Source: Gemmatimonadota bacterium (lineage in GTDB: Bacteria > Gemmatimonadota > Gemmatimonadetes > Palauibacterales > KS3-K002). Taken from it: a stretch of DNA of 64,000 nucleotides. The DNA lies in NCBI GenBank assembly GCA_039586795.1, contig JBDHJS010000003.1:16358-80357 (forward strand), in the 5' to 3' direction. Numbering within the stretch: the stretch's first letter is position 1; every line of letters begins with the position of its first letter. Made by a program: the position numbers and the translations under genes. Under the pieces are notes generated by a model that saw only the letters and a list, made by a program, of their open reading frames with translations, ran no database searches and was not told the DNA's origin. This document shows, piece by piece, positions 15,157-59,244 of the stretch.

Positions 15157-15205
15157 GCTGCGACGGACTCGGTTTTGACGTGGGACGACGCTGAGTATGG
15201 CAGGA

Positions 15206-42659: not shown

Positions 42660-42980
42660 ACCATAGGCCGGCGGAACCCGGCCAGCCGACGAATCGGCTC
42701 AATTTGGCCGCGCCTCGAGGCACAGAAACCGCGGCCAGATCCATTTCGGCGCCCCACACTGGCCGCGGCCGCTCGTTGCGCCGGCGCGACAGGGCCGCGA
42801 CACCGCACGCTACTCCCACCCCGACTGTAGCCAATATCCCGCAAGAACAGGGCACCGCAGCCGGGATTGCGCATGAATTAGGGGTTTTTGGGGCCCCGTG
42901 TTGTGCACGCCTCTTGCTACCACCCGTAGAAGTGAAGCCCGCAAAAGACTGACGCTGTAAGGCAGAAGCCAAAACAGGAC

Positions 42981-44000
42981 GTGGATATGGTGGGATTAGA
43001 GCCGAATCGTCCGCCACTGGTGCTGGTAGCGAATGATGAGGAATGGTGGGCCCGATCGCTGGAGAGCCTGCTGTCGCCTGGAGGATATGCCATCCTCCGC
43101 GCCTATACGGGCAGACAGACTCTGGAGCGGGCACACGAGGTGGGGCCCGACCTGATTATCCTTGACGCGAGCCTACCCGACATACCCGGCATCGAGCTGT
43201 GCCGACGGCTGCGCAGCGACCGTCGAGTCAGTAGCGCGACGCCGATCCTGATCACGACAGCCGGCCGCTGCACCAGGGAAGAGCGACTGGAGGCGCTGAG
43301 CGCGGGCGCATGGGACTTCATCGGTCTGCCGTTGGACGCCGATGACCTGATCTTGAGGCTCAACGCTTACATGCGGGCCAAGCTGGAAGCCGAGCGTACG
43401 AAAGAGGAAGGTCTCATCGACCCCCTCACCGGCCTGTACAACCTACAGGGCCTGAGGCGTCGAGCCCGCGAACTGGGCACAGATGCTTATCGGCACGGCC
43501 GGGCGTTGGCCTGCGTTGCCCTGGCCTTGAGGATAGAAGATCCCTCCAACTCTGACAGCTCCGATGTCTTCTGGGACGCGATAGACAGGGCTGGCACCGT
43601 GCTACGCGACTCGGGTCGCATCTCCGACGCCATAGGTCGGATCCGTGATGGCGAGTTCGTGATCATCGCACCGGAGACGGACGACACCGGCGCGCACCAG
43701 CTGGCGCAGCGGTTGTCGACCGAGGTCGAAGAGATCATGGCCGTCGGTGAGAGTATGCCTCCCGTTCAGGTGCTCGCGGGATACAGTGCCGTACCCAACC
43801 TTCAATCCGCCGGCGTTCGGCCGAGCGCCATATTGGCAAACGCGAAGATGGCGCTGAGCCGCTTGCAGGCACAGCCCGGCGGATCGGGAGTCCTCCGGTA
43901 CGAAGGAGACTACGACGACAGTGATCTGGATGATGGCGGAGATCTGGGGCAGAGCCTGGCTGACATAACTGTGGAGCCACAGCGTCACGCTACGCACTGA
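42981..44000 (+). CDS. Response regulator: receiver domain + degenerate GGDEF domain
   Basis: Receiver (LIILDAS...); GGDEF fold starting DPLTGLYN, with the active-site GG(D/E)EF replaced by RDGEF. Paralog of 52421..53347. Confidence 0.7.
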   Translation: MDMVGLEPNRPPLVLVANDEEWWARSLESLLSPGGYAILRAYTGRQTLERAHEVGPDLIILDASLPDIPGIELCRRLRSDRRVSSATPILITTAGRCTREERLEALSAGAWDFIGLPLDADDLILRLNAYMRAKLEAERTKEEGLIDPLTGLYNLQGLRRRARELGTDAYRHGRALACVALALRIEDPSNSDSSDVFWDAIDRAGTVLRDSGRISDAIGRIRDGEFVIIAPETDDTGAHQLAQRLSTEVEEIMAVGESMPPVQVLAGYSAVPNLQSAGVRPSAILANAKMALSRLQAQPGGSGVLRYEGDYDDSDLDDGGDLGQSLADITVEPQRHATH

Positions 44001-44027
44001 CAGAAGGCTGGACTTGCTGTTAGGGAA

Positions 44028-46964
44028 TCACTTCCAGAGACGGACGTGATTTCTACGCTGGTGCTCGCGGAAGGATTCGATGCGAGCGTCGACTCCCGCG
44101 AGATCTTCGTCAATCGCCCTTCCTAAGCGGCCTTCGCCGTTGCCGTTGCCATTCCCACTCCCGTTCCCGTTCCCGTGGCTGTTCCCCTCTTCGTTGCTAT
44201 CAACCTGCCAATCGAGGATTTCGAAGTCGGTGATTTCGAGATCGGCAACTTCCACAGGTTCCACTTCCTGGATGACCGACTCGATTTCCAGATCCAGTAG
44301 TTCATCGAGCCGCGAATACCGAGACGCATTGAAGTCGACCTGAATCTCCGCAGCGATCGGCAACTCACTTCCGTTTCCGTTCCGCTTTCTGTTGCCGCTG
44401 TGAGTGCCGTTACCGTTGTTCCTTCCGTTTCCGTTGCCATCGGGGAGCGTGACCCGTTCCACGCGGTCGACCTCGGTCCGCGGATCGACCTTCGGGGGTT
44501 CAGTCTGCGAGTCGTCGACGGACGCGCCTTCACGGAGGTCGATGCTCCGCTGTATCCGTTTTCCGGGCAGCGCGCGCTTGGCCTCGTCAGGCAGATACAA
44601 GCTAGCGTAAGCCTTACGATGGTAACGATAGACGCCAACGTGTGGAACGTCGTTGAGGATCGCGCCGAGTAGCCGGACCGGCAATCGAGCCAGCGAATCG
44701 AGCCGCCATTCCGTCGCGGACCGATTGGTCGTACCCGTTCGGACGACCAACACCATGTTGCGGGTGAGCGTGCCGAGAGCCAGCGGGTCGGCACAAGCTG
44801 CGAGGGGCGGCGTGTCCACCAGGATCACGTCGTACTCCTTACGCATCTGAGCCAAGAGATAAGTCATGGCCCGAGATTGCAGCAATTCGGGCCCATCCTG
44901 ACGGCGGGTCCCGCTGGCTATTCGAGAGAGTGCCCTGTGACTGGTCGAACGCACGACCTTCTCTAGCGGCGCGTTGCCGGCGAGATAGTCGGTAAGTCCT
45001 GGCTTGCGGCCGCCGCCCAACAGGCGATGCTGGGAACCGCGTCGAACATCGGCGTCGATGATCAGCGTGCGGTACCCCATGCCGGAAAACGCCATTCCCA
45101 AGTTGGCCAGCACGAACGACTTACCATCCTCGGGCTCGGGGCTGGTTACCGACAGGACCACGGGCCCAGCCGTCCCGTGGGCGTGAGCGACGTTGAGGCG
45201 AATGACCCTGAAGGCCTCGACGACCTGTGCTGCCTTGAGGGCGCTCAGCCCGCGGGAGCCGTTGTTCACGTGTGGCACGGAGCCGATGACCGGCACGCCA
45301 AGACCGTCGCTAACTTGCTGAGGGTAACTCAGTCGCGTGTCCAAGAAGTCCAGAAGAATGCCGACGCCCACCGCGATACACAGGCTGGCCATGAGAGCCA
45401 TGAGGATGAACTGCTCTTCCTGGCTCTCATTGATCGGCTGCTGCGGCGGGAAGGCGGCGTCCATGACGCGGACATCTGGAATACTGCTCTCCGCGGCGAG
45501 GTGTGCTTCATCGCGGCGCGCCTGGAGCGTATTGAAGAGATTGGCGGCGATCGCTACCCTGCGCTCCAGCCGCGCCTCACCGATTGCCCGCATCGGAGTC
45601 CTGCGCAACTCATCGGCCGCGGCCACGATCATGCTCTCGAGAATCACTTCCCGATCGGCGAGCGTCCGAGAAAGATCGGCGGCCAGGCGGGGCACCGTCG
45701 ATGTCTCGAGTGATTGGATCTCGCTTCTAAGGTCCCGGACGGCCTGGTGCTCTTCCGTGTAGCGATTGAGCTGCGAGCGCAACTCGGATCGCTTTGACGT
45801 GAGCTCGCCCATCGCCAGAACCAGATCAGAGGATGCTCTCACAGACGGGATGATCTCGAGCCCCTCGATCGAGGGTCCAGATTCCGACGCGTTCCTCAGC
45901 ACACGATCGATTGACCAACGATCGCGTCTCAGCTGTTCACGCTCGATCAGCAAGCTCGAGTAGTTCGAGAAGGCGGACTCGCGTGTCGACTCGACTCCAG
46001 GCGCGACCGGCGTGGCGCGCTGCGCCGGGAGTGTGATGGTCCTGACCCGAAACGACTCGAGCTCACCCTCAGCCTCAAGCAGTTGCTGATGGGCCTGCGA
46101 CAGTTGCTCGTTCAGAATGCGGGTGGATTCGAGGAGCCTTTCACGCTTGAGGTCATGCACGACCTGCACGTAGCGCTGGCTCACCGCGTTGAGCACTTCC
46201 GAGATCTGAACCGGATCCTCGCCCGTCAGGCTGAGGTTGAGGAATGTATGCTCTGAATCGATTTCGGTATTGATGCGCTCGCCGAGACTCCTGGCGACGT
46301 CTCGCAAGCTCTCGACACTGAACTCTATGTCGCCCCCGAGGGCCGACACACGCTCCAGAGTTTCCTGGCCTGTTAGCGGACCGCTCAAGTCGTCGATCGC
46401 GCCCTCATGCACCAGCTTGTCGCCAGCGGCAATCAGCTGGAAACGGCGGCCGTCAGGATCGACGGCGAGTCGGTAATGGCCGGCCGCCAGACCATCATCC
46501 AGCTGGAACTGGGCGAGCAGGTTAGCTTCCTGCGGCGAAGCGGCTCTGAGATACAGGCGCAGGTCGCCGACGACTTCGTCGAGCACCCGGTACGATCGGA
46601 GGAGCTCTACCCATGCGGCACCGGCCTGAAGCAGCTGGCCCGTCTGCACAGGTGCCTGCTCGTTGGCGCGGCTATCGCTAGGCTCGATCCAGATGGTCGT
46701 TTGCGCTTTGTACTGGGGCTTTATCTGGTGAGCCAATGCGAATCCGCTCGCCGAACCCAACACGGCAACCAGCAAGACAACCCAGCGGTAGCGCCACACC
46801 GCGACTATGAATCGACGCCAGTCCAGCGAAGAAGCGAGCGGGAGCTCGTGTGCGGCGCTGCCGTTTGACGGGCGTGCACCATTACCACGACCTGCACCGT
46901 TCCCCTGCGGGGTCGTGTGATGCGGCAGTTTCCTGCCGTTATGGCTGGTGAACGCGCTGGGCAT
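44028..46964 (-). CDS. Polysaccharide co-polymerase/tyrosine autokinase (Wzc/GumC-like BY-kinase), copy 1
   Basis: Wzz-type N-terminal TM plus a periplasmic coiled region. P-loop kinase domain SVTSPEPEDGKSFVLANLGMAF (Walker A), IIDADVRRG. C-terminal Tyr cluster YRYHRKAYASLY. Start chosen at MPSAFTSH by alignment with the paralog; the ORF is open up to 47303. Confidence 0.75.
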   Translation of the reverse strand: MPSAFTSHNGRKLPHHTTPQGNGAGRGNGARPSNGSAAHELPLASSLDWRRFIVAVWRYRWVVLLVAVLGSASGFALAHQIKPQYKAQTTIWIEPSDSRANEQAPVQTGQLLQAGAAWVELLRSYRVLDEVVGDLRLYLRAASPQEANLLAQFQLDDGLAAGHYRLAVDPDGRRFQLIAAGDKLVHEGAIDDLSGPLTGQETLERVSALGGDIEFSVESLRDVARSLGERINTEIDSEHTFLNLSLTGEDPVQISEVLNAVSQRYVQVVHDLKRERLLESTRILNEQLSQAHQQLLEAEGELESFRVRTITLPAQRATPVAPGVESTRESAFSNYSSLLIEREQLRRDRWSIDRVLRNASESGPSIEGLEIIPSVRASSDLVLAMGELTSKRSELRSQLNRYTEEHQAVRDLRSEIQSLETSTVPRLAADLSRTLADREVILESMIVAAADELRRTPMRAIGEARLERRVAIAANLFNTLQARRDEAHLAAESSIPDVRVMDAAFPPQQPINESQEEQFILMALMASLCIAVGVGILLDFLDTRLSYPQQVSDGLGVPVIGSVPHVNNGSRGLSALKAAQVVEAFRVIRLNVAHAHGTAGPVVLSVTSPEPEDGKSFVLANLGMAFSGMGYRTLIIDADVRRGSQHRLLGGGRKPGLTDYLAGNAPLEKVVRSTSHRALSRIASGTRRQDGPELLQSRAMTYLLAQMRKEYDVILVDTPPLAACADPLALGTLTRNMVLVVRTGTTNRSATEWRLDSLARLPVRLLGAILNDVPHVGVYRYHRKAYASLYLPDEAKRALPGKRIQRSIDLREGASVDDSQTEPPKVDPRTEVDRVERVTLPDGNGNGRNNGNGTHSGNRKRNGNGSELPIAAEIQVDFNASRYSRLDELLDLEIESVIQEVEPVEVADLEITDFEILDWQVDSNEEGNSHGNGNGSGNGNGNGEGRLGRAIDEDLAGVDARIESFREHQRRNHVRLWK

Positions 46965-47447
46965 CGTTTCGGTGCCGGATGCCTGGCTGAGGGTTCTGGC
47001 GGGTAACCATTCCATCCAGCAACAGGGATGCCGCTGGGCCGAGTTTTCCACAAAACGCTGAAAGGCGTTGGAAGATAAGGTGTTTGCGGCACTGGCAGGG
47101 GTCGGTGCTGGAAGTGGGAATGTGGTGTGTAGACGCAGCGCTACAGATCGGCCCCGTAGGCGGGATAGGGTGTGGCTTTGGTCCGACCCTCTAGGGAGGA
47201 CCGCGGTCACGTCGGCTTTACTATTGACATTTCTCTCTTTCATCCGTACTGTTGCATTCCCGCTGCTTCTGCGACGTCGGCTCCACAGTTCGCGTCGCTC
47301 CACGTCGGCCCCATCGCCGCAGCAGGTAAGCGGGCCTACGTAGACTTTGGGCCGCCGGTCCCGCCACGGCTGAAGTTCTCAACGGATCTCACAGGACGTT
47401 CTATCGCCACTTCGCGGTGCGCGATCCTGAAACGTGGGAGGCTCCCG

Positions 47448-48983
47448 ATGCCCCGTGCCCTGTCCGGCATACGCTCCGACAGCGTAAGCCCCTTTGTGCC
47501 CGCCGACACCGAGTTTGAAGAGAGAGCAGATTTCGCTGACGCCCCGAGAACGTCGCTGCGTCTCGTCGTGATCGACGATGAACGGACGTTGAGGGAGAGT
47601 TGCGCCAGCATACTGGAAATCGATGGCCACGACGTCACCAAGGTGAGTCGAGGCGACCAGGCCCTGGACCTTCTGCGTCGCCGCAGGTTCGACGTGGCCC
47701 TGATCGATCTCAACATGTCAGAGACCCACGGTCTCGATCTGTTGCGGGCCGGCCTGAAAGCGAACCCTGACATGATCCCGATCATGATCACGGGTAGGCC
47801 AAGCGTGGACTCGAACCTCGAGGCGCTGCAAGCGGGCGCGTGGGATTACCTTCCCAAGCCATTCTCAGCCAGCCAGTTGCAGCTTTTGATCGGGCGCGCC
47901 GCTCACGCGGTGGTATCGTCACGAGAGATCGGCGAGAAGCAGAAACAGCTGGAAGGCGCGCACGACCATGGCGAGCAGGTAACGTTGCTGGGCGTGTCGT
48001 CGGCGTTTACTCGCGTGATAGAAACTGCCCGACAAGTGGCCCGCACCGACGCCTCGGTGTTCATCACGGGTGAGAGTGGAACGGGCAAAGAGCTGATCGC
48101 CCAATTCATCCACCACCACAGTCGGCGCAGCCGGCGAATGCTCGTTCCCCTGAACTGCGCGGCGCTGCCGGAGACGCTTCTGGAGTCGGAGATGTTCGGG
48201 CATTGCAGAGGCTCGTTCACGGGAGCGGACCGCGACAAGCCGGGGTTGTTGGAAGTCGCGGACGGCGGAACGATGTTCTTGGACGAAGTGACGGAGATGT
48301 CGCACGCGACCCAAGCCAAGTTACTTCGTGTTCTTCAGGACGGCGTGCTGCGGCGAGTTGGAAGTACCAAGACCGACGCGGTAGTGAACGTACGGTTCAT
48401 CGCTGCCACGAATCGCGAGCCGGCGCAGGCGGTGGAGGATGGAGATATGCGACAGGATCTCTTCTTCCGCCTCAAGGTCGTACCGATCAGGATACCGCCA
48501 CTCCGTGAGCGGCCGGACGACATACCGGTTCTGGCGAACCACTTCTTGATGCATTACTGGAAAAGGCATCGCGACGTAGGCGCGGAGTTGCCCCGTTTCT
48601 CAACCGGCGCGATGTTGGCCCTGCAGACTCGTGCCTGGCCGGGCAACGTGCGGGAGCTACAGAACGCGATCGAGCACGCAGTCGTGTTCCTCGAGCCCGG
48701 GATGGAGATTACGGCGGCTGACATCCCGTCGATCCAAGGCGCTGAGGAAGCGATGGTTTCTGCCCCGATGGGGTTCCGCGGATTCGACGAGCCTTACCAC
48801 GCCGCGCGCGAACGGCTGACGGCTGAATTCGAGAAACGCTATTTGACCGCAATGGTAAACCGTGCTGGCGGCAATATGTCCGAGGCTGCTCGACTCGCCG
48901 GCATCGACCGTACGACGATCTATCGTTTGATGGAAAAGCACGGACTGGATCGCGAAGAGATCGTTCTGGACTCCGGAATGTAA
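47448..48983 (+). CDS. Sigma-54-dependent response regulator (NtrC/PrsR-like), copy 1
   Basis: Receiver (LVVIDDERTL...D), AAA+ GESGTGKE and GAFTGA-like sigma-54 interaction motif (GSFTGA), C-terminal HTH. Start at 47448 preceded by GGGAGG; the ORF-track start at 47172 is likely an upstream extension. Confidence 0.8.
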   Translation: MPRALSGIRSDSVSPFVPADTEFEERADFADAPRTSLRLVVIDDERTLRESCASILEIDGHDVTKVSRGDQALDLLRRRRFDVALIDLNMSETHGLDLLRAGLKANPDMIPIMITGRPSVDSNLEALQAGAWDYLPKPFSASQLQLLIGRAAHAVVSSREIGEKQKQLEGAHDHGEQVTLLGVSSAFTRVIETARQVARTDASVFITGESGTGKELIAQFIHHHSRRSRRMLVPLNCAALPETLLESEMFGHCRGSFTGADRDKPGLLEVADGGTMFLDEVTEMSHATQAKLLRVLQDGVLRRVGSTKTDAVVNVRFIAATNREPAQAVEDGDMRQDLFFRLKVVPIRIPPLRERPDDIPVLANHFLMHYWKRHRDVGAELPRFSTGAMLALQTRAWPGNVRELQNAIEHAVVFLEPGMEITAADIPSIQGAEEAMVSAPMGFRGFDEPYHAARERLTAEFEKRYLTAMVNRAGGNMSEAARLAGIDRTTIYRLMEKHGLDREEIVLDSGM

Positions 48984-48995
48984 GCGGAAGATCTG

Positions 48996-50129
48996 ATGGA
49001 AGTCGTTCACCCGCCACGGCCAACCGAACACGACGCCGGCCTGGACGTCCAGCCGCGGAATCTGTCTGCGGCTGCGCTCCAGTTCGCCAAAGTGCCGAAC
49101 CGTGCTCTGCTCGCGGCGGCCCAGGGCGTGATGACCCGTTGGCAGGACGCCCTCGGCACGGTGACGCCGTGGCCAGCGGCGGCGGACGAACTCGCCCGGC
49201 TTACGATAGCGGTGCACGAAATCGCGTCCAGCGGTGAAGCGGCGCTAGAGCTACCGATCGGTACTCCGTTGCGGCGGCAGTTGCTGGCGCTGCTGGAGAC
49301 CGAGGTCGAAGAGTGCCGCGGCAGGATTTGCTCCGACGCCGAGGTAGACGAGCTCAAGGACGCTTTCACCGTCGTGCATGGCGCGTTGGAATGCGAGGAC
49401 ATGCAGGAGGTGGAGGCTCGGCTGGCCAGCCCGGACGGGCCCGAGCTGCTCGCTGAGGTCGCCCACGATCTGCGCTCCCCGCTGACATCCATTCTGACAC
49501 TCGCCGATGCGCTCCGTAGCGGCCGTAGCGGCGACGTGAACGGAGTTCAGCAGCGTCAACTCGGACTGATTTACAGCGCGGCGCTGGCGTTGAGTTCGAC
49601 GGCGAGCAACCTGATAGAGCTGGCCCATGGAGGCGATCGCCTTGCGCAAAAGGAGCCTTCGCCGTTCTCGATCCTCGAGATCATGGAGTCGGTTCGCGAC
49701 GTGCTGCTGCCGATGGCCGAAGAGAAAGAGATCGAGCTACGCTTCGCGCCTGGCGACAATCAGCGTCGGCTTGGCTATCCGCTGGCGCTTTCCCGCGTTC
49801 TGCTGAACCTGGCGACGAACTCTCTGAAGTTCACCGAAGAAGGGTACGTGGAAGTCACGGCGCGCCCGCTCGACCCGACGCACGTGGAATTCGCAGTGCG
49901 CGACACCGGCAAGGGGATCAGCGCTACCGCCGTGGACACGCTTTACCAACCGTTCCGGCGCTCGCCCGCCAGAGACGGCTACTTCTTCTCGGGGACCGGA
50001 CTGGGACTCATGATCTGCCGCAGGCTGGTGGAGGCGATGGGTTCGAGGTTGGAGTTCGAGACGCGACCGGATTGGGGCACCCGATTCTACTTCGAGCTCG
50101 AGCTGCGGCAGGTAGACGAATTCGTCTGA
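48996..50129 (+). CDS. Histidine kinase (soluble)
   Basis: H-box AHDLRSPLTSI; catalytic domain with DTGKGI and GTGLGLMI boxes. No TM segments. Confidence 0.75.
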   Translation: MEVVHPPRPTEHDAGLDVQPRNLSAAALQFAKVPNRALLAAAQGVMTRWQDALGTVTPWPAAADELARLTIAVHEIASSGEAALELPIGTPLRRQLLALLETEVEECRGRICSDAEVDELKDAFTVVHGALECEDMQEVEARLASPDGPELLAEVAHDLRSPLTSILTLADALRSGRSGDVNGVQQRQLGLIYSAALALSSTASNLIELAHGGDRLAQKEPSPFSILEIMESVRDVLLPMAEEKEIELRFAPGDNQRRLGYPLALSRVLLNLATNSLKFTEEGYVEVTARPLDPTHVEFAVRDTGKGISATAVDTLYQPFRRSPARDGYFFSGTGLGLMICRRLVEAMGSRLEFETRPDWGTRFYFELELRQVDEFV

Positions 50130-50150
50130 AGCAGAGGGCTCTCCCGCTCG

Positions 50151-51263
50151 CTAACTTCGCGAGACAATCCCCCTTACGATCACATCGGCGATCCGCTCCG
50201 CAGCTTTCCCATCCCAGAGTTCCGGCGCCTTCTTCAAAGGCCGGCTACCGTTCCTCTTTTCGGTGGCCTGCAGGGCAGCTCCGACAATCGCATCCGCCTC
50301 GAGGCTGACCAAACGATTGGTGCCCTGCTCCACCGTAACCGGACGCTCGGTGTTGAGACGAAGCGTGACACACGGGACTCCGAGGACGGTGGTCTCCTCC
50401 TGGATACCCCCCGAATCGGTGAGCATGACCGCCGCCTCCGACATAAGAGCCAGAAACTCCTGATATCCGAGCGGATCGATCAAGCGCACGCGCCCCAGCT
50501 TTGAGCGCAGCCCGAACGAATCGAGTTTGCTCTGCGTTCTCGGGTGCACGGGAAAGACCACGGGCAGTGTCTCCGCGACATCCGCCAGGGCGTTGACTAT
50601 CGGTTCGAGCGATTCGGGGCTGTCCACATTGGACGGCCGGTGTAACGTGACCAGCGCGTAGCTTCGCTCCGACAGGTCGTAGCTGGCCAGCGTCTTCAGC
50701 GTCGGAACGTGCTCGAGCTGTTTCAGCAGCGTGTCGATCATCACGTTTCCGACAAAGTGAATCCGGTCTTCGGACACGCCCTCTTTCTTCAGGTTCTCGT
50801 TGGCAGCACGCTCAGTCGTGAAAAGGAAATCGGACAGACGATCGGTGACCACGCGATTAATCTCTTCCGGCATGCCCCAGTCGAACGAGCGGAGTCCGGC
50901 TTCGACGTGCGCCACCGAGATTCCCAGCTTGGCTGCGACCAGCGAGCATGCGACTGTCGAGTTCACATCGCCCACAACGACCACGAGGTCAGGCTGGCGC
51001 TCCAGGCAGATGGGCTCGAACGCCTGCATGACGCGAGCCGTCTGTTCCGCATGAGTGCCCGATCCGACACCGAGATCCACATCCGGTCGTTGAATTCCGA
51101 GCTGGTCGAAGAAGATCTTTGAAAGGGCCTCGTCGTAGTGCTGGCCGGTATGAACGAGTATCTGCTCGACCTCGGGATAGGCGCGAAGCGCCTCCATAAC
51201 GGGCGCTATCTTCATGAAGTTGGGCCGCGCGCCCGCTACGTGTAGAACTCGCCGACTCGTCAT
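50151..51263 (-). CDS. wecB: UDP-N-acetylglucosamine 2-epimerase (non-hydrolysing)
   Basis: Conserved N-terminus (LHVAGARPNFMKIAPV, HTGQHYD, VVGDVNSTVA) and C-terminal blocks typical of WecB/MnaA. Confidence 0.85.
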   Translation of the reverse strand: MTSRRVLHVAGARPNFMKIAPVMEALRAYPEVEQILVHTGQHYDEALSKIFFDQLGIQRPDVDLGVGSGTHAEQTARVMQAFEPICLERQPDLVVVVGDVNSTVACSLVAAKLGISVAHVEAGLRSFDWGMPEEINRVVTDRLSDFLFTTERAANENLKKEGVSEDRIHFVGNVMIDTLLKQLEHVPTLKTLASYDLSERSYALVTLHRPSNVDSPESLEPIVNALADVAETLPVVFPVHPRTQSKLDSFGLRSKLGRVRLIDPLGYQEFLALMSEAAVMLTDSGGIQEETTVLGVPCVTLRLNTERPVTVEQGTNRLVSLEADAIVGAALQATEKRNGSRPLKKAPELWDGKAAERIADVIVRGIVSRS

Positions 51264-51281
51264 AGTTGTGCGATTACGCGA

Positions 51282-52145
51282 TTAGCGACGGAGAACCCGG
51301 TCGACCAGAATGATGATGCTGGTAACCGCGGCTGTGTAACTTATGATTTGGCCGAACGTGAAGACCGGCCGCCTGGGGACTTCGATCGAATCGCCCTCGC
51401 GCAACTGAAGCGCATCGAGCGTTTCCCCAAGGGCGAGGGCGAGCTCGAGCTCCTTCCCCTCCAGCACCGTGCCGTCCGCACGCCTGACCTTCAGCTTGTG
51501 GAGGTTGGCCGCCGTCGTCGGCCCACCCACTGACATGATCGCGTCCGGCAGCGGAGTCTCGATAGGTAACATGTGGTAACCCGGCTGCAGAATCTCTCCG
51601 GCGAACGTAAGCCGCACGTAGGTCCGGGCTCTCACGTCGGGCTGAGCGACGAATCGACTCAGCTGCTGTGTGAGATACGGCTGAAGCTCCGTCCGTAGAA
51701 CGCCCCTGAGGGAAATCGCCCCCACCACGGGCAACTCGATGGCCGGACCTGCCGTGACGACGAAGGTATCGGTGAGCTGCAGCTCACCCTCCACCACCAT
51801 CACCACTCGATCGCCTACGCGGAAATCCCCCTGCTGCAAACGCCGGCGGACGATCGCCGCCTCGCCCCTCGCTTTCTCGCGCAGCACCGGGCTATAAGCC
51901 TGCGACCGGGCTCCGTTCTCGAAAAACGTTGCCAGCTGCTCCAGCGTGTCGCGCGTCGCGCCGACGCCGGGAATCTGCCACGGATCCTGCTGGGCACTGA
52001 GTTCAGCCGGGTGAACCGCACCAGCGATGAGTACAGCTGTAAGAGCTACGATCGACAGTCGAGACACGGTACCTCCAAGAGTCGAATTCCCTTGCACAGC
52101 CACACGCCCGCACGGATTCAAGATTGAGGCCGAACGTGGCGACAC
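51282..52145 (-). CDS. Polysaccharide export protein (Wza/EpsA-like, SLBB domain)
   Basis: Signal/TM; the motif FRVGDRVVMVVEGELQLTDTFVVTAGPAIELPVVGAISLRG is typical of Wza-family polysaccharide export proteins. Confidence 0.7.
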   Translation of the reverse strand: MSPRSASILNPCGRVAVQGNSTLGGTVSRLSIVALTAVLIAGAVHPAELSAQQDPWQIPGVGATRDTLEQLATFFENGARSQAYSPVLREKARGEAAIVRRRLQQGDFRVGDRVVMVVEGELQLTDTFVVTAGPAIELPVVGAISLRGVLRTELQPYLTQQLSRFVAQPDVRARTYVRLTFAGEILQPGYHMLPIETPLPDAIMSVGGPTTAANLHKLKVRRADGTVLEGKELELALALGETLDALQLREGDSIEVPRRPVFTFGQIISYTAAVTSIIILVDRVLRR

Positions 52146-52420
52146 ACCGGTTCTGGTCGTAAACCGCTGAACGATAGAGGATTACGCTGCCAGAAGCCAC
52201 ACCGCTGTTTCGGCTCTACAACGCCGATTTGGTGCACCCGTGCCACGCGAGGCTTGCGCAAGTCGGCTGCAAAGGCCACAATACGACCGCTGAAACGGAT
52301 GATTCCCTCCGGCAACCGCATTCCCCCGAACGCCCAAGCACGGGACTTTCCGCTTGGCGATGCACCAGTTCTGTAGGATCGCTGACAGCGACCGTTCCCG
52401 TGGTAAAGGCAGGGAAGGAA

Positions 52421-53347
52421 ATGGCTGATCAGGCTCCGGTCCGCCCGACGTTGGCTCTGATCGCGAATGATCAGGAGTGGTCAAGCCGATCGCTCGAGAG
52501 CACGCTGGCCCCGTTGGGGTACGCCTTCATACGAGCATACAACGGCCAACAGGCGATCGAGCTTGCGGGTGACAGCTCGCCTGATGTGATCATCATCGAT
52601 GCCACGCTGCCGGACATGCCTGGGATCGAGGCCTGTCGTCGAATCCGCAGGGATCCACGCGTTACCATCGTCACACCCATCATCGTCACGACCGCGGGCC
52701 GTCTGACGCGGCACGATCGTTTGGAGGCCCTGAAAGCTGGGGCGTGGGATTTCTGCGGCTGGCCGATAGACGTGGAAGAGTTCACGCTGAGGCTGGGGTT
52801 GTATCTGAAAGCGAAGTTGGAGGCTGACCAGACCCGAGAAGACAGTCTGATCGACCATGACACGGGTTTGTACAATCTGCGAGGACTGATGCGCCGCGCC
52901 CGGGAGTTGGGGTCCGACGCGTACCGCCACTCGCGGGCGCTGGCCTGCGTAGCCCTGGCACTGCAGCCTCCCAACGGGATGATGATCGGCAACGGGGATG
53001 ACTCCGAGTTATGGGAGATTCTGGAGATTCTCGGCGACGCGCTCAAGACGAACGCGCGCATCTCGGACGCAGTGGGACGCGTACGGCTGGGAGAGTTCCT
53101 GGTCGTCGCCCCGGCTACCGACGATGTGGGAGCGTTGACTTTGGCGGAGCGACTTACGACCGCCATCCAAGGTGTCGTTGAAGAAAGCGAAAAAGCGCCG
53201 CTGACGGTCCTTGCTGGCTACCACGCGGTGGATGACCTGCGCGAATCGGGCGTACAGCCGTCGGAGCTCATGGCAGGAGCGACGACGGCTCTTCGTCGTT
53301 TGCAGATCGATCCAGGAGAAGCGAGGATCAGCCGCCACGTTGGGTGA
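52421..53347 (+). CDS. Response regulator: receiver + degenerate GGDEF domain (paralog of 42981..44000)
   Basis: High similarity to the copy at 42981 (ALIANDQEW..., DHDTGLYNLRGLMRRARELG). GGDEF site is RLGEF. Start at 52421 preceded by AGGGAAGG; the ORF is open from 52229. Confidence 0.7.
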   Translation: MADQAPVRPTLALIANDQEWSSRSLESTLAPLGYAFIRAYNGQQAIELAGDSSPDVIIIDATLPDMPGIEACRRIRRDPRVTIVTPIIVTTAGRLTRHDRLEALKAGAWDFCGWPIDVEEFTLRLGLYLKAKLEADQTREDSLIDHDTGLYNLRGLMRRARELGSDAYRHSRALACVALALQPPNGMMIGNGDDSELWEILEILGDALKTNARISDAVGRVRLGEFLVVAPATDDVGALTLAERLTTAIQGVVEESEKAPLTVLAGYHAVDDLRESGVQPSELMAGATTALRRLQIDPGEARISRHVG

Positions 53348-53388
53348 CTGATCCTCGAGATGTTAAGCCTGCCTTCAGTCTACTTGCA

Positions 53389-56118
53389 TCACCGCCGGGC
53401 ACTCTTACGATGCTTGCGCCTACGTTGGGCGCCGGGCTTGTGAGTCTTCTCGGCATTCTCGTCCCGGCCATCACCGCCGTCCGCTGAGAGATCCTCGGGT
53501 TGGTCTCCGTCGGAGCCGTTGACCTGAACTTCTGGCACATCCAACCCTTCTTCAGACGAGACGTCTTCGGTCTGGGCACCGAATTCGAACTCAGGCTCGA
53601 CGACCGAGATCTCTTCTATTTCGGGACTCTCATCGGCTGATGTGTCAGCGGTCGTGAAGCTAATCTCCCCGACGGCGTCTTCCTCGGTAACCGCCTCTCC
53701 GCCCGGCGTCCAGACCTGCACGCGCTCTTCTGATTCCTCCTCATCCCACGCTTCGTAGCCGGGTGAGTAGTAACTGTAGTACTGGCGGTAGAGTCCGCCC
53801 GGCGGAACATCATTCAAGACGGCGCCGAGCAGGCGAATGGGTAACCGCTCCAGGACATCGAGCTTCGCTTCGGTCGTCTCGCGGTCCGTAGCACCGGTTC
53901 GCACGACGAGCAGCATGCTGCCTGTGAGCGTTCCCATGGCCAGTGGATCGACTCCGGCCGTGAGCGGCGGTGTGTCGAGAAGCACGACGTCGTAGCTACT
54001 TCTGAGCTGCAAGAGGAGCGTCGACATCTCCTGTGACTGAATCAACTCCGGGCCGTCTTGCCGACGCGTACCGCAGCCGATTCGATCGACCATCTCGTAC
54101 ATCGTGGACTGAATGATCTGTTCGCGTGAAGCCTGGCCGGCCAGGTAGTCAGTGAGTCCCGGCTTTCTTGCCCCGCCGAACAAGCGGTGCAGCACGCCTC
54201 TGCGAACATCACCGTCGATAACCAACGTCCTTCGGCCGAGGTCCGCGAACGCCAACGCGAGGTTGGACGTCACGAACGACTTCCCGTCCTCAGGCGACGT
54301 GCTGCTTATCGTCACCACGACAGGGCCGGCGGAGCCGTAAGCGTGCAGCAGGTTGAGGCGAATGACCCTGAACGCCTCGACGAGCTGTTCGGTGGCTTTG
54401 ATGGCCTGACCGCGGCGGCCGGCGACGTGGGGGATCGTCCCGATGATGGGGAGGCCGAGCTCCTCGCTGAGCTGTTCGGGGTACTTGAAGCGAGGGTCGA
54501 TGCGATCGAGAACCAACGCTGCGCCCACGGCGCCCATGAAGCTGACCATGAACGCCAGAATGAACAGTCGCGGCTTCTGGCTCTCGTTGATCGGTCGCTG
54601 GGGCGCCACAGCGGCATCGAGGATTCTCACGTCCGGAATACTGCTCACGGCGGCGAGTCGCGCTTCTTCGTATCGCGCCTGCAGCATGGTGAACAGGTTG
54701 GCGGCTATTGCCACTCGTCGCTCGAGTCGCGCCTCGTCGATCAACCGGGGCGGAATCTCGCTCAACTCATCTGAAGCGGATGCGATGAGATCGTCCAGTT
54801 CACGCTCGCGCTCGACGACCTCCGCGACCAACGAACGCACCAAAGTAGGTATGGTCCTCCGCTCCAGCGACTCAAGCTCGTCCTTGAGCTGCTGGATGGG
54901 TGGGTATTCGTCGGTGTAGCGGTAGTACAGAGTCCGCAGCTCAGCTCGTTTCACCGTGAGCTCATCGAGCACGCCCAGAAGTTCCGAAGCCTCGCGCACG
55001 GCCGGTATGACCTCAAGGGCCGCTACCGAGAACTCGACGGTGGGATCTCTGGCCAGCACTTCTTCGAGCGCCTCTCTATCACGTCGCAGCTGCTCGGACT
55101 GAACCTTCAGGTCGAAGTAGCCGCCGAAAGCAGGCGCCGTCGTCTGCTGCAGACCCGGGGTCACCGGAGTAGCGGGACTCGAAGGCAGAGTGATGGTCTC
55201 GACACGGAAGTTCTCCAGCGCCGCTTCCGCCTCGGCCAGCTGCTGCGCCGCGAGATCCAGCTGCTCGTCGAGGATCTCGGTGACCTCCTCAAGCTTGTCG
55301 CTCTTGAGATCCGCGGCGACCTCTACGTAGCGCTCACCGATCGCGTTCAGCGTTCTGGCGATGCGGCCCGGGCTCGACCCCCGGAGCGATAGCCGGAGGA
55401 AGCTGCCGTTGCCGTCCAGGTCGATACCCAGGGTCCTGCCGAGCCGGGTCGCTCTGTCGCGGGGATTCCCAACGCCGAACTCGATGACGCGCCCGGCCGT
55501 CAGCTCCTCGGCCGGCGGGATCCACACGAAGCCGAACTGCTGGCCCACGGAGTCGCCAACCGCACCCCGCTGGACGACCAATTCGTCCGCCGTCCGCAAC
55601 TCGAACCCTTCACCGTCTGGCGTCACGGTGAGCTTATAGTCGCCGTAGGCCGCTCGCTCGTAACTGTCGGCGAGCCTGAAATCCTCAAACACTGAGGCAT
55701 TTGCCGGGTCTCCCCGACTCAGGTAGAGCCGCATGTCGAGAACAGCGTGCTCGAGGACCATGTAGGACGTGAGGAGATTCACCCAGGCGGCGGACTCGAG
55801 GAGCTCGGTCTGGCGAATCGGGCCCTGGGCGGCCTCGCCGCGGTTGGTCCTCTCGATCCAGAGCGTCGCCTGAGCCTCGTACTGCGGCGTCACGAACCTG
55901 CCTGCCGCCACACCCGCGGCACTGCCGAGAATGGTCACCAGGATGATCAGCCACTTGTAGCGCCACAGAGCTACGGCGTAGCGGCGCCAGTCGAAACCAG
56001 GCTGCGCGAACGTCGGGGTAACCGGCACGCCCTCCCATCCGGTATCGACAGCGCCGGCCGGCTGGATCTCTCCAGCGCCGGTCACATCCTCGGGCTTGGC
56101 GGGCAGATTGTCCGACAT
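53389..56118 (-). CDS. Polysaccharide co-polymerase/tyrosine autokinase (Wzc-like BY-kinase), copy 2
   Basis: Paralog of 44028..46964. Walker A VTISSTSPEDGKSFVTSNLALAF, Tyr cluster YRQYYSYYSPGY, and a strongly acidic then basic C-terminal tail. Confidence 0.75.
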   Translation of the reverse strand: MSDNLPAKPEDVTGAGEIQPAGAVDTGWEGVPVTPTFAQPGFDWRRYAVALWRYKWLIILVTILGSAAGVAAGRFVTPQYEAQATLWIERTNRGEAAQGPIRQTELLESAAWVNLLTSYMVLEHAVLDMRLYLSRGDPANASVFEDFRLADSYERAAYGDYKLTVTPDGEGFELRTADELVVQRGAVGDSVGQQFGFVWIPPAEELTAGRVIEFGVGNPRDRATRLGRTLGIDLDGNGSFLRLSLRGSSPGRIARTLNAIGERYVEVAADLKSDKLEEVTEILDEQLDLAAQQLAEAEAALENFRVETITLPSSPATPVTPGLQQTTAPAFGGYFDLKVQSEQLRRDREALEEVLARDPTVEFSVAALEVIPAVREASELLGVLDELTVKRAELRTLYYRYTDEYPPIQQLKDELESLERRTIPTLVRSLVAEVVERERELDDLIASASDELSEIPPRLIDEARLERRVAIAANLFTMLQARYEEARLAAVSSIPDVRILDAAVAPQRPINESQKPRLFILAFMVSFMGAVGAALVLDRIDPRFKYPEQLSEELGLPIIGTIPHVAGRRGQAIKATEQLVEAFRVIRLNLLHAYGSAGPVVVTISSTSPEDGKSFVTSNLALAFADLGRRTLVIDGDVRRGVLHRLFGGARKPGLTDYLAGQASREQIIQSTMYEMVDRIGCGTRRQDGPELIQSQEMSTLLLQLRSSYDVVLLDTPPLTAGVDPLAMGTLTGSMLLVVRTGATDRETTEAKLDVLERLPIRLLGAVLNDVPPGGLYRQYYSYYSPGYEAWDEEESEERVQVWTPGGEAVTEEDAVGEISFTTADTSADESPEIEEISVVEPEFEFGAQTEDVSSEEGLDVPEVQVNGSDGDQPEDLSADGGDGRDENAEKTHKPGAQRRRKHRKSARR

Positions 56119-56610
56119 ACACAGACTCACGGCAAAGGTGGTATTCACTCGCGGACTCCAGGCGCCCGCGACGCTCAAGATAACCCTAACAATCCGGGAT
56201 GCAGCAAGCCCGATACTCCGTAGCAAGCACGATGCCGGGCGCGCGGCGAAGCGAGAGATCTCTTTCCAACAACAAGGTTCTACCGGCAGCCGACGCGGTG
56301 GGCCGGGCAGCGTTGTATATTTCGCAGACCTGCTATGTAGCGAGGCTGCTACAGCACTTCAGGCGACTTGAAGGCGATTGTGGTATTGGGCCAACAGGGC
56401 TGGGCCAGGTGGTCCGCCTCGCTGGCCCGTCAGAAGGCCGGAACGCAAGTGATGGGTTGAGAACCCCAAGCCTTCCGGCCCCTAACCGCCCGGGCGGTGG
56501 GGTTCAAATGTTCCGGCCTGATCCCTGCAAGATCCAATTGAGTCACGATAATACCCGCCGCGGCCACTGCCTCCGGAGACGAGGCAGCCAGTGGAAAACA
56601 CCGTGGAGGC

Positions 56611-58164
56611 TTGTTGATGTCCAGTTCCCTGTCCGGCACAAACAGCGGCGATGGAGACGTGCTAACGCCAGCCCCCGCTGGCCTTTCATCTGAGGAAGGT
56701 ACGCGCGGTACCGAATCGGTGATCCCGCTGAGGATCCTGATTGCGGATGACGACCGTACGTTGCTCGAGAGCTGCGCGAGTATCTTGGAAATTCAGGGTC
56801 ACGAGGTGACCTTGTCGGCGCGAGGCCAGGAAGCGCTGGATATTCTGCGACGTCGCCGTTTCGACCTGGCGCTGATCGATCTGTACATGCTGGACGTGTC
56901 GGGGATGGAGCTATTGCGGGCCAGCCTCAAAGCGAACCCCGACCTGATTCCGATCATCATCACGGGCAAGCCAAGCGTGGATTCGAACATGGAGGCGATC
57001 CGCGCCGGCGCCTGGGACTATCTTCCGAAGCCATTCTCCGCGACACAATTGCAGGTGATGATCGGCCGGGCGGCGCACGCCGTGCTGGGAGCGCGCAAGA
57101 CGCAGGCTCTCCAGCAGGATATCGAGACGCAGCACGGCCACAGCGAAAAGGTGAAGGTGCTGGGGATCTCACCCGCGTTCCAGCGGATCGTCGAGGTCTG
57201 CCGCCGGGTGGCGCCCACCGATGCCTCAGCTTTTGTCACCGGAGAAAGCGGGACGGGCAAGGAACTGATCGCCCAGTTCATTCATCACCACAGTCGACGG
57301 GCGCGGAAGCCGCTCGTCCCGATCAATTGCGCCGCCTTGCCGGAGACGCTTCTGGAATCCGAGATGTTCGGACATTGCAAAGGCTCGTTCACGGGTGCGG
57401 TGCGGGACAAGCCTGGCCTCCTGGAGATCGCCGACGGCGGCACGATGTTCCTGGATGAGATCACCGAGATGTCACAGGCCATTCAGGCGAAGTTGCTGCG
57501 GGTAATCCAGGACGGCGTGGTTCGACGAGTCGGCAGCACGAAGACGGACGCCGTGGTCAACGTCCGCTTCATCGCCGCGACGAACCGCGACCCGGAGGAA
57601 GCCGTCGAATCCGGCACACTCCGCCAGGACCTGTACTTCCGGCTACGTGTGGTGCCGATACGCGTACCACCGCTGCGGGAGCGGCCCGAGGACGTCCCGA
57701 TTCTGGCCGAGCACTTCCTGCTGACCTACTGGAAGCGGCACCGTGAGCGGGGCGCCGAGCCGCCGAAGTTCACCGCCGCCGCCACGCGAGCGCTGCAGGA
57801 CCGGCAGTGGCCAGGCAACGTCCGCGAGCTGCAGAACGCTATCGAGCACGCGGTCGTGTTCCTCGAGCCGGGAGCCGATATCAAGGCCGAGGACGTCCCA
57901 TCCGTTCAGGACAAGGTGCCTGCTCAGGAGGGCTCCCTATTCGAACTCAATTGGCTCGACGAGCCCTATCACATCGCCCGCGATCGGATGACCGCGGAGT
58001 TCGAGCGGCGTTACCTGGTTTGGGTCGTGAACCGAGCGGCCGGCAACATGTCCAAGGCCGCCCGCATAGCGGGAATCGACAGGACGACGATCTATCGGCT
58101 GATGGAGAAGCACGGCCTGCGGCGTGATGCCATGGTCGCGCAGAACTCTCAAGACACTCCGTGA
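56611..58164 (+). CDS. Sigma-54-dependent response regulator (NtrC/PrsR-like), copy 2
   Basis: Same architecture as 47448..48983 ([17 protein letters not shown]), with a nearly identical C-terminal block ([26 protein letters not shown]). Confidence 0.85.
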
Positions 58165-58189
58165 CGCCGACAGGATCGGTTTGATCGTA

Positions 58190-58240
58190 GCACCACGTTT
58201 CTTTTTCGTTGGTGCTGTCGAGTTTTCTTCTTCTTCAAGC
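58190..58240 (+). terminator. Putative rho-independent terminator after the sigma-54 regulator
   Basis: Hairpin GCACCA...TGGTGC followed by a T-rich tract GTCGAGTTTTCTTCTTCTTC. Confidence 0.35.
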
Positions 58241-58479
58241 AAGCGCTTTCCTGTAGCACCGTCTCCACAACTAGCAGATGCATTGCTACGTAGCGTGAGT
58301 ACATCAGTTTCCGGACGGCCCACCTAAGTACTTGTAAATAAACAACTTGGATATTGGCACGGAACGGCCCAAACGCGCACAGCCGTTGCACCTGCATGTG
58401 AGCGCTTAACCGAAGTACGCCTTGGCTTGCCAACCCGCCGGCGAGTCAGACCTGAATCACCACACAACGCGGAGTTGGG

Positions 58480-59244
58480 ATGGAGGCATCGACAGTACCC
58501 ACGCGAGAGCACTATCGCGCTCAGACTAAGCCACTTGCGCTGGAGAACGGCAACGGATCCGCGGGCGGGTTGAGTGAAGGGTCCACTGCTTCGCATGAGT
58601 TGGCTAGCGAGCGTGCTCGACGCATTCTGAATTTGGCGGCCGCATTTGTGTTGCTTGTTCTCAGCACTCCGGTCATGATCGTCATCGCGCTGGCGATCAG
58701 GCTGACCTCTTCCGGTCCGATCTTCTTCGTTCAGCAGCGCGTTGGCATCGACCGCCGCAACGGTGGACGGCCAACCGGCAACTGTCGGCGGCAGACGGAT
58801 GCGGGTGGGCGGCCCTTCAAGATCTACAAGTTTCGCACGATGCATTGGAACGGCGGCAACGGTGATCGTCAGGTGTGGGCAAGTCCTGAAGACCCACGCG
58901 TCACTCGGTTGGGCCGCGTTCTGCGCACGTACAGGCTGGACGAGCTACCTCAGCTCATCAACATCCTGCGCGGAGACATGAACCTGGTCGGGCCACGGCC
59001 AGAACAGCCCAAGATATTTGACGATCTGCGTTCCAAAGTGACCGGCTACGAACGGCGCCAAGCTGTGCGACCGGGGATCACGGGGTGGGCGCAGGTCAAT
59101 CAGCATTACGACCGGTCGGTCGAGGATGTGAAGAAGAAGCTGGCGCTGGACCTCGAGTACATCGGCAAGCAGTCGGTACGAGAGGACTTGAAGATCATGC
59201 TCCGTACGGTGCCGGTAATCCTGTTCAAGGAAGGCGCCTGGTAA
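58480..59244 (+). CDS. Undecaprenyl-phosphate sugar phosphotransferase (bacterial sugar transferase; WbaP/EpsL-type priming enzyme)
   Basis: Motifs KIYKFRTM, RVTRLGRVLRTYRLDELPQL and GDMNLVGPRP. Carries a ~20-aa insertion (DRRNGGRPTGNCRRQTDAGGRP) ahead of KFRTM. Confidence 0.85.
   Translation: MEASTVPTREHYRAQTKPLALENGNGSAGGLSEGSTASHELASERARRILNLAAAFVLLVLSTPVMIVIALAIRLTSSGPIFFVQQRVGIDRRNGGRPTGNCRRQTDAGGRPFKIYKFRTMHWNGGNGDRQVWASPEDPRVTRLGRVLRTYRLDELPQLINILRGDMNLVGPRPEQPKIFDDLRSKVTGYERRQAVRPGITGWAQVNQHYDRSVEDVKKKLALDLEYIGKQSVREDLKIMLRTVPVILFKEGAW

Follow-up and report, generated by a model that had tools for sequence, protein, structure and literature searches.

Why should a bacterium carry, side by side, two versions of what looks like one regulatory module for exopolysaccharide (EPS) export, and how are the two related? 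The question is raised by a stretch of 64,000 nucleotides (the window) from an uncultured Gemmatimonadota bacterium (GenBank assembly GCA_039586795.1, contig JBDHJS010000003.1, positions 16,358 to 80,357). The window contains two collinear three-gene modules, A (42981-48983) and B (52421-58164), that lie 9.4 kb apart. Each encodes a response regulator with a degenerate GGDEF domain (RRG), a Wzc-like co-polymerase and tyrosine kinase, and an NtrC-family sigma-54 activator (a bacterial enhancer-binding protein, here EBP). The block probably represents two co-resident, anciently diverged versions of a conserved Gemmatimonadota module that controls Wzx/Wzy-type EPS export, with both versions sharing a single histidine kinase (HK), a single Wza, the epimerase WecB and a priming transferase. 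Sequence and comparison establish the anatomy of the block, the conservation of its promoters and enhancers, the non-sister phylogeny of its copies and the purifying selection acting on both.

An earlier note on this DNA, made from its letters alone, had described paralogous three-gene modules of the same order and orientation with a soluble histidine kinase, wecB and wza between them, and this arrangement is confirmed by open reading frame (ORF) coordinates, BLASTP, Pfam and, for wecB, TIGR00236. By Pfam, the module proteins carry Response_reg and GGDEF (RRG), Wzz, GNVR and a P-loop (Wzc), and Response_reg, Sigma54_activat and HTH_8 (EBP). In BLASTP, the A and B proteins share 55% identity over 310 amino acids (RRG, E 3e-118), 51% over 749 amino acids (Wzc, E 0) and 68% over 509 amino acids (EBP, E 0). 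The pairwise alignment that had been proposed as a check extends to the DNA, which is collinear at 65-71% identity with a longest exact shared word of 21 nt. The homology of the two modules is far above chance.

Shared order and orientation, proximity and the homology of all three protein pairs would suit a recent in-situ tandem duplication that left two independently regulated chain-length/export machines on one Wza, and the earlier note had supposed that the block had been duplicated as a whole. The phylogeny points elsewhere. In quartets with the relatives L094 and L089, the split (A,L094)|(B,L089) is recovered in 500/500 bootstraps for the activator and likewise for Wzc, the protein whose phylogeny had been named as a test, and A and B are sisters in 0/500 for each. 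The histidine kinase pairs with L094 in 500/500 bootstraps. The RRG quartets are weaker (347/500 against a sister relationship, 153/500 for it), and larger neighbor-joining trees agree with the quartets that the copies are not sisters. EBP_A groups with the L094/P0122 lineage and EBP_B with L089/P0132; EBP_B is 79% identical to its L089 counterpart and EBP_A 73% to that of L094, against 68% between A and B. Closer orthologues of each copy are thus found elsewhere, and the modules come near to being no closer to each other than to other family members, the outcome that the earlier note had named as telling against duplication. The synonymous sites between A and B are saturated (proportion of synonymous differences, pS, 0.65-0.71), again unlike a recent copy, as is the shortness of the longest shared word, and the independent control that such a duplication was taken to provide is opposed by the signs of shared control described below. 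A recent tandem duplication is thus scarcely credible. Modules A and B appear instead to be anciently diverged, non-sister versions of one module.

The claim that both copies were retained has held up better. The ratio of nonsynonymous to synonymous substitution (dN/dS, by the Nei-Gojobori method, with dS about 1.1-1.3) was calculated against near-relative orthologues in L091, L095 and L096 and is 0.08 for RRG_A, 0.15 for Wzc_A, 0.05 for EBP_A, 0.04 for RRG_B and 0.17 for the C-terminus of Wzc_B, and all catalytic motifs are intact. By this measure both copies are under purifying selection and still functional. Pseudogenization of one module was considered and rejected in view of the dN/dS values and the intact motifs. 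Module A is the faster evolving of the two, with longer branches and a reduced tyrosine cluster in its Wzc.

What the block departs from becomes clear from its relatives. A species-level genome scan found the RRG family at 333 genome loci, nearly all in Gemmatimonadota, and about 170 related loci (80 from genomes, 80 from metagenomes and a dozen others) were compared. RRG_A itself has an identical counterpart on JGI/NCBI metagenome contigs of up to 210 kb; an exact-protein look-up with the window WecB gave no match. The usual single-copy order is priming transferase (BacTransf, -), Wza (-), RRG (+), Wzc (-), EBP (+) and HK (+), often followed by wecB; in a Gemmatimonadaceae variant the transferase comes after the kinase. 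Because this order recurs over the related loci, the single-copy module is regarded as a conserved phylum-level unit; Gemmatimonas aurantiaca and G. phototrophica are among its carriers. In the genome and metagenome scans, none of the roughly 170 loci (0/~170) has a second module within 10 kb. The window block has the same outer flanks as the relatives (to its left serpin, VTT and radical-SAM genes, to its right the transferase), and the serpin-VTT-radical-SAM neighborhood is conserved in L084 (serpin, VTT, radical-SAM, a kinase-only Wzc paralogue, epimerase, Wza, RRG, Wzc, EBP, HK, exosortase, EpsI). L089 has the order radical-SAM, Wza, RRG, Wzc, EBP, HK, BacTransf, exosortase, EpsI, and L093 the order radical-SAM, epimerase, Wza, RRG, Wzc, EBP, HK, LMWPc (a low-molecular-weight phosphotyrosine phosphatase). 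The two-module layout is known only from the window species and from near-relative fragments 86-92% identical to it: L091 (RRG_A'-Wzc_A'), L096 (Wzc_A'-EBP_A'-HK') and L095 (Wza'-RRG_B'-Wzc_B'). In L095 the RRG_B orthologue is 91.6% identical and stands beside a Wza orthologue of 78.6% identity.

The relatives also vary in their complement of Wzc. In a frequent variant that lacks Wzc, the order is BacTransf (-), RRG (+), EBP (+), HK (+); such loci include L038, L061, L064, L066, L068, L071, L077, L079, L080, L133, L138 and L141-L145. Since RRG is kept beside the EBP-HK pair in these loci even though Wzc is missing, it is at least as closely tied to that pair as it is to Wzc. Four loci (L001, L002, L003 and L084) have extra, very divergent Wzc-like paralogues (30-42% identity) upstream of the module; in L003 and L084 the extra paralogue lies beside the radical-SAM gene, and the one in L084 is kinase-only. 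Multiplicity of Wzc therefore recurs in the sub-clade, in forms other than that of the window.

Which of the two window copies is the resident one can be read from position and from relatives. Module B, by position as well as by phylogeny, is the orthologue of the usual single module: it sits between Wza and BacTransf, and the priming transferase, which flanks it as in single-module relatives (TIGR03025, 254 bits, cutoff 295), is 70% identical to the transferase in the same position of L089. Module A, together with the kinase, is the extra copy, from a second lineage of the module. The kinase is 77% identical to that of L094, which stands next to an A-type activator, and 52-58% to those of L089, L093 and L084 (B-type), so that by sequence it belongs to the A lineage. 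The distance from promoter to ATG divides in the same way, at 53-55 nt in A, L096 and L094 against 90-103 nt in B, L089, L093 and L084.

Two histories may account for this. Module A and the kinase may have been acquired laterally from an L094-like member of the Gemmatimonadota and recombined beside the resident B, with loss of the resident kinase. Wzc, the activator and the kinase congruently place A with L094, the promoter distances divide by lineage, B keeps the place of the single module, and the double arrangement is confined to the window species and its closest relatives, all of which favor acquisition and bring it to a little short of an even chance. Against it, guanine-plus-cytosine content is 0.61-0.64 over the block with no compositional anomaly, none of the genes of the block was seen to be a mobile-element gene, and the long branches of A could distort its placement. 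Alternatively, the module could have been duplicated in tandem long ago, in an ancestor of the sub-clade; most descendants would then have lost one copy, and the window lineage would have shed the redundant wza and kinase genes reciprocally. Doubling [wecB wza RRG wzc EBP HK] and removing the first wecB-wza and the second HK gives the exact order of the window, the required ancestral order is present in L023 and L093, and the extra Wzc-like paralogues adjoin the radical-SAM gene in L001, L003 and L084. The absence of a second module from the related loci would require many independent losses, however, and A-type and B-type single-module relatives share the same radical-SAM-linked position. An old duplication is a real but lesser possibility, with perhaps one chance in three in its favor, and we lean slightly toward lateral acquisition. 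By either route, two old versions of the module now stand side by side, a rare arrangement that is restricted to this lineage.

What does the module control? The earlier note predicted RpoN-dependent promoters, and computation bears this out upstream of both wzc genes, with conservation across the phylum. Both predicted promoters read CGGCAT-N5-TTGCT, with the same two deviations from TGGCAC-N5-TTGCW, and their distances to the aligned N-terminus of Wzc are almost equal (202 nt in A, 201 nt in B). The wzc_A start codon at 46964 is preferred to the public call at 47015, which is placed 3 nt past the -12 element. Among 58 related wzc-EBP intergenic regions, 40 contain CGGYAY-N5-TTGCN in the wzc orientation, against 0.1 in shuffled sequences, and the closest relatives have exactly one site each. 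The intergenic regions of the window (46965-47447, 483 bp in A; 56119-56610, 492 bp in B) hold its only two exact matches to the palindrome TGTAG-N8-CTACA (chance expectation 0.41 in 64 kb, one-mismatch hits included). TGTWG-N8-CWACA is found in 13 of the 58 related regions (0.045 in shuffles), always 89-133 nt upstream of the promoter, and TGTNG-N8-CNACA is found 111-121 nt upstream in four close relatives (L084, L093, L094 and L096). In L096 the orthologous A region is 90% identical overall, where synonymous sites have a pS of 0.57; the promoter and both half-sites of the palindrome are invariant and the spacer varies.

Correctly spaced sigma-54 promoters were not found in the window upstream of RRG_A, RRG_B, wza or the transferase. 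A GTGCAC-N5-TTGCT before RRG_A is without the GG, and a TGGCAC before the transferase is without a -12 partner; wza-oriented matches occur in some relatives (14/61). A third, imperfect palindrome lies between EBP_B and the transferase, and the search around it gave no GG-N10-GC promoter with the right spacing. Since wzc is convergent with the RRG gene, the sigma-54 transcript would be monocistronic, and the conserved output of the circuit would therefore be the level of Wzc.

A second sigma-54-like motif, TGGTAYCAAAGATGCW, directed toward the activator gene occurs in 19 of the 58 related loci, against 0.2 in shuffles (among them L008, L009, L011, L016, L021, L025, L027-L031, L037, L039, L043, L045 and L060), which suggests autoregulation of the activator in those loci; neither module of the window has this motif. 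Upstream of EBP_A (about 47231-47447, +) there is a TTGACA-17 nt-TACTGT pair whose hexamers are conserved in L096 and whose spacer is variable. Over about 190 nt, the EBP_A leader matches that of L096 at roughly 95% identity, against a synonymous pS of 0.57; its folding is no better than that of shuffles (z = -0.96), and no Rfam family reached its gathering score anywhere in the window.

The proteins that would act at these sites have the architecture of the NtrC family (receiver, AAA+ domain and Fis-type helix-turn-helix, HTH), with Pfam scores for A and B of 218 and 221 bits (Sigma54_activat), 82 and 78 bits (Response_reg) and 36 and 31 bits (HTH_8). Their receivers keep all phospho-receiver residues (DD, D, T, K). 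A stretch of 17 residues of the HTH region is identical in the two activators, and helix 1 of their receivers is nearly so. The block has one histidine kinase, a cytoplasmic protein with no transmembrane (TM) segment and an uncharacterized N-terminal domain of about 140 amino acids. The earlier note had proposed independently regulated machines. Because there is one kinase, an identical HTH stretch and the same palindrome at the same distance, independent regulation seems unlikely, and cross-talk or joint control of both modules is the more likely arrangement.

The AlphaFold model of RRG_A (predicted local distance difference test score, pLDDT, 87.9) has the receiver-stalk-GGDEF fold, with best structural matches to WspR, PleD and DgcR (Foldseek: WspR 3e-22; DgcR 6zxm, TM-score 0.61/0.68), and Pfam scores its Response_reg at 66 bits and its GGDEF at 36 bits. 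The best NCBIfam matches of the RR-GGDEF proteins are also PleD and DgcR, below their cutoffs (89-92 bits against 474 and 69 against 500). This architecture would fit an active, phosphorylation-controlled diguanylate cyclase of the PleD/WspR type that produces cyclic di-GMP (c-di-GMP). That reading is nevertheless very hard to sustain. The degeneracy of GGDEF claimed by the earlier note is confirmed: in place of GG[DE]EF, A has RDGEF and B has RLGEF, the site is degenerate throughout the family (199/199 members), and the substrate/metal motif of PleD, 'DFFKKINDTFGHDIGD', has no counterpart in the alignment. The scores fall far below the cyclase cutoffs, and the receiver lacks its conserved lysine. 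In alignment with PleD, RRG_A keeps D62, has L116 in place of the lysine, and keeps RxxD in register, with R213 and D216 aligned to R359 and D362 of PleD, five residues before the GGDEF position. RRG_B also keeps RxxD and has W at the lysine position. Across the 199 members R213 and D216 are invariant, and the receiver has Asp62 in 190, Thr92 in 197 and Asn at the first acidic position in 190; the lysine position holds Q, L, S or W and never K, which departs from a canonical phospho-receiver. Because the cyclase site is dead and the RxxD I-site is invariant, the RRG protein is probably a catalytically dead, putatively c-di-GMP-binding adaptor.

Both Wzc proteins have TM-like segments at about 51-72 and 516-534 that flank a periplasmic Wzz/GNVR domain (Wzz 39 bits in both; GNVR 33 bits in B, over the cutoff of 27.7, and 22 bits in A, below it). 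They pass TIGR01007 (119.6 bits in A and 125.5 in B, cutoff 108.05) and fall well below the equivalog NF008568 (149 and 170 bits against 1068). The motifs GKS, DxDxRRG and DTPP are present in 60-61 of 61 family members, and Walker A, A' and B are intact in the window copies. The tyrosine clusters differ, with six Tyr in Wzc_B (YRQYYSYYSPGY) and four with altered spacing in Wzc_A (YRYHRKAYASLY). The cluster lies 203 amino acids from the C-terminus in Wzc_A and 136 in Wzc_B, against a family median of 35. The extra length at these C-termini (44028-44640 and 53389-53800, -) is acidic, NG-repeat and of low complexity with a basic patch at the end, and the last 19 amino acids of Wzc_A match, at 74% identity, the C-terminal end of the kinase-only Wzc paralogue beside the radical-SAM gene of L084. 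The window has no gene for the cognate phosphatase (Wzb); L093 has LMWPc beside its kinase.

Taken together, these features suggest the following circuit. The cytoplasmic histidine kinase would phosphorylate the receiver of the NtrC-type activator, here probably of both activators. The activator would bind the putative TGTAG-N8-CTACA enhancer about 112 nt upstream and remodel sigma-54 RNA polymerase at the CGGCAT-N5-TTGCT promoter, so that the divergently transcribed, monocistronic wzc would be switched on. Wzc, as co-polymerase and tyrosine autokinase, would then couple polymerization to the Wza channel. The WspR/DgcR-shaped RRG protein would most likely sense c-di-GMP and modulate either the activator/kinase pair or Wzc. 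Of these steps, we infer the phosphotransfer partners, the in vivo dependence on sigma-54, the binding of c-di-GMP and the co-regulation of the two wzc genes. A more pointed version, in which a c-di-GMP-sensing pseudo-receiver gates the kinase/sigma-54 circuit, the amount of Wzc is the sole output, and two diverged circuits run on one kinase and one Wza, is unlikely as it stands. If it were true, mixed or switched Wzc paralogues (hetero-oligomers or alternative octamers, with the full or the reduced tyrosine cluster) could change the length or type of the polymer.

Several observations weigh against this account. The sigma-54 contact loop is GSFTGA in both activators and not GAFTGA, one conservative change. 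Neither rpoN nor an RpoN box was found in the window, and the presence of rpoN is only implied because three sigma-54 activators are encoded there. Conservation of RxxD could be structural, no cyclase or phosphodiesterase gene is found nearby, and phosphorylation of the RRG protein is doubtful because its receiver lacks the lysine and has Asn at the first acidic position. The context of L094, the A-type relative, spans only 7 kb, too short to show a second module. As for the promoters, both deviate from the consensus at two positions, and the search for sigma-54 promoters that the earlier note had proposed, run over the whole window, returned one site at each wzc and a total of TGGCAC-N5-TTGCW matches at chance level (21 against 21.7). 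The case for the promoters therefore rests on position and conservation. A position weight matrix (PWM) derived from 38 promoters at other loci fails to score the sites of the window, since the other loci have CGGTAY and the window CGGCAT, and a simple sigma-70/terminator scan of 42600-58600 gave fewer matches than shuffles. From the chance-level count and the indecisive PWM and sigma-70 scans it might be argued that the motifs arose by chance or belong to another factor, and that wzc is transcribed from an ordinary promoter. This is improbable, given the recurrence of the promoter in one orientation over 40 orthologous regions, its fixed GG-N10-GC spacing, the constant distance of the enhancer, the full conservation of both where synonymous sites have diverged, and the sigma-54 activator gene that is always adjacent and divergent.

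The circuit resembles several systems that regulate EPS. PrsK/PrsR and RpoN control EPS loci of the PEP-CTERM/exosortase type and floc formation in Zoogloea and Aquincola (PMC9850573), and Francke et al. (PMC3162934) linked sigma-54 in general to the cell exterior. As in the PrsK/PrsR system, an NtrC-family activator adjoins a histidine kinase within an EPS locus and the targets have (here predicted) sigma-54 promoters with upstream enhancers; exosortase and EpsI directly follow the kinase in single-module relatives (L084), and an acyl-CoA ligase near the window block best matches the exosortase-A-associated ligase. The earlier note had called the activators PrsR-like, but strict membership is not supported, on three counts: the scores, the kinase and the missing exosortase of the window. 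The PrsR model TIGR02915 is their best or second-best curated match, but their scores of 355.9 (A) and 368.6 bits (B) stay below its cutoff of 502.6, and AtoC, NtrX, NtrC and LuxO score similarly. The kinase is a soluble protein unlike the large membrane kinase PrsK, and the PrsK model TIGR02916 is outside its best 25 NCBIfam matches. No exosortase or EpsI was found in the window (by tblastn) or within 10 kb downstream, and no PEP-CTERM tails in the window. The conserved sigma-54 target here is wzc and not a PEP-CTERM gene, and the unit includes an RRG partner.

The Wzc proteins resemble Wzc of E. coli K30/K-12, a tyrosine kinase of PCP-2a type that works with Wza. They align with the solved K30 Wzc over the two TM segments, Wzz/GNVR, Walker A/A'/B and the C-terminal tyrosine cluster, and a Wza-like gene is adjacent. 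They differ from E. coli Wzc in that they are only about 25-30% similar outside the kinase domain, have a longer acidic tail, lack Wzb in the window and have a predicted, dedicated sigma-54 promoter. Receptors that bind c-di-GMP through the I-site of a degenerate GGDEF domain include PelD, PopA, SgmT, PssE and YdaK (the last described in PMC9800504). The RRG protein shares with these receptors the loss of GG[DE]EF, the RxxD five residues upstream and an EPS-linked gene. PelD is a GAF-GGDEF protein with TM segments and PopA has two receivers, whereas RRG has a single atypical receiver, a stalk and GGDEF; it is genetically tied to a sigma-54 activator/kinase pair, and its binding of c-di-GMP is only predicted. 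Control of EPS by sigma-54 in response to c-di-GMP is a property of EpsI/Nla24 in Myxococcus. In Burkholderia, BerB, BerA and RpoN control the Bep EPS in a c-di-GMP-responsive manner (PMC9684580). BerB and EpsI/Nla24 share with the present module a sigma-54 activator over an EPS locus and a second-messenger input; in those systems the activator itself binds c-di-GMP, whereas in the present module the candidate sensor is a degenerate-GGDEF protein distinct from the activator, which has a normal phospho-receiver.

Full-text searches within one collection of papers, on EPS, sigma-54, exosortases, degenerate GGDEF proteins, enhancer-binding proteins and Wzc, gave no description of this Gemmatimonadota module. 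A predicted sigma-54 promoter and enhancer dedicated to wzc, with a divergent activator, a soluble kinase and an I-site-only GGDEF partner, appears to be undescribed. Because every part comes from a well-known family, the advance lies in the wiring and its distribution and not in a new machine. Gemmatimonadota are abundant in soil and sediment and have almost no genetics. The module supplies concrete, testable sequence motifs for a phylum-wide EPS export control unit, and the two-module locus is a natural experiment in which diverged copies of a circuit run on one kinase and one outer-membrane channel. The features of the block are collected in Table 1; a single Wza site was found in the window by tblastn with the Wza of a relative.

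Table 1. Genes and predicted regulatory sites of the two-module block (positions in the window)
Feature	Position	Strand	Remarks
RRG_A (receiver, coiled-coil stalk, degenerate GGDEF)	42981-44000	+	339 aa; public gene call starts at 42987
wzc_A (co-polymerase of PCP-2a type/bacterial tyrosine kinase, BY-kinase)	44028-46964	-	Pfam, TIGR01007
wzc_A promoter, sigma-54 type -24/-12, predicted, CGGCATccctgTTGCT	47018-47033	-	53 nt upstream of ATG
Putative enhancer palindrome (upstream activating sequence, UAS), module A, TGTAG-N8-CTACA	47128-47145	.	about 112 nt upstream of wzc_A promoter
EBP_A (NtrC-family sigma-54 activator)	47448-48983	+	Pfam
Soluble histidine kinase	48996-50129	+	377 aa; HisKA and HATPase_c; only one in block
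wecB (non-hydrolyzing UDP-GlcNAc 2-epimerase)	50151-51263	-	Epimerase_2; TIGR00236 342.8 bits, cutoff 210
Short Wza-like export protein, outer membrane	51282-52145	-	Poly_export 31.6 bits and SLBB 28.4 bits, both barely over cutoff
RRG_B (paralogue of RRG_A)	52421-53347	+	Pfam Response_reg and GGDEF
wzc_B (PCP-2a/BY-kinase)	53389-56118	-	Pfam, TIGR01007, alignment with K30 Wzc
wzc_B promoter, sigma-54 type -24/-12, predicted, CGGCATcgtgcTTGCT	56222-56237	-	103 nt upstream of ATG
Putative enhancer palindrome, module B, TGTAG-N8-CTACA	56336-56353	.	about 116 nt upstream of wzc_B promoter
EBP_B (NtrC-family sigma-54 activator)	56611-58164	+	Pfam; no kinase gene after it
Third palindrome, imperfect, TGTAGcaccgtctCCACA	58252-58269	.	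between EBP_B and priming transferase
Polyprenyl-phosphate sugar transferase (priming enzyme)	58480-59244	+	Pfam Bac_transf 200 bits

Other parts of the window hold genes of separate interest. A bacterial serpin is encoded at 38375-39604 (-, Pfam 375 bits) and an M2 peptidase resembling angiotensin-converting enzyme at 20465-22261 (+, 326 bits). A single ORF of 2827 amino acids at 28243-36726 (+) has, in its public gene call, domains of FAD_binding_2/DAO/Thi4/FAD_oxidored and ETF/ETF_alpha together with those of an acyl-CoA dehydrogenase (middle and C-terminal); it appears to unite a flavin oxidoreductase with an acyl-CoA dehydrogenase and an electron-transfer flavoprotein in an unusual fusion. 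The operon at 12470-20216 (-) encodes an ABC ATPase, two ABC-2 permeases, an NPCBM_assoc protein, a GAF histidine kinase and the third sigma-54 activator. It is preceded by a near-consensus sigma-54 motif, TGGCACgcaccTCGCT, at 20216-20201, 58 nt before its first ATG, and is probably a self-contained, sigma-54-regulated transporter operon. The ORF at 59365-60853 (-) is lipoprotein-like, with the lipobox LASC, 13 consecutive prolines and two internal repeats, and has no Pfam or NCBIfam match; its longest ATG is preceded at a distance of 163 nt by a sigma-54 motif with one mismatch, CGGCACctcgcTTGCA (60853-60838).

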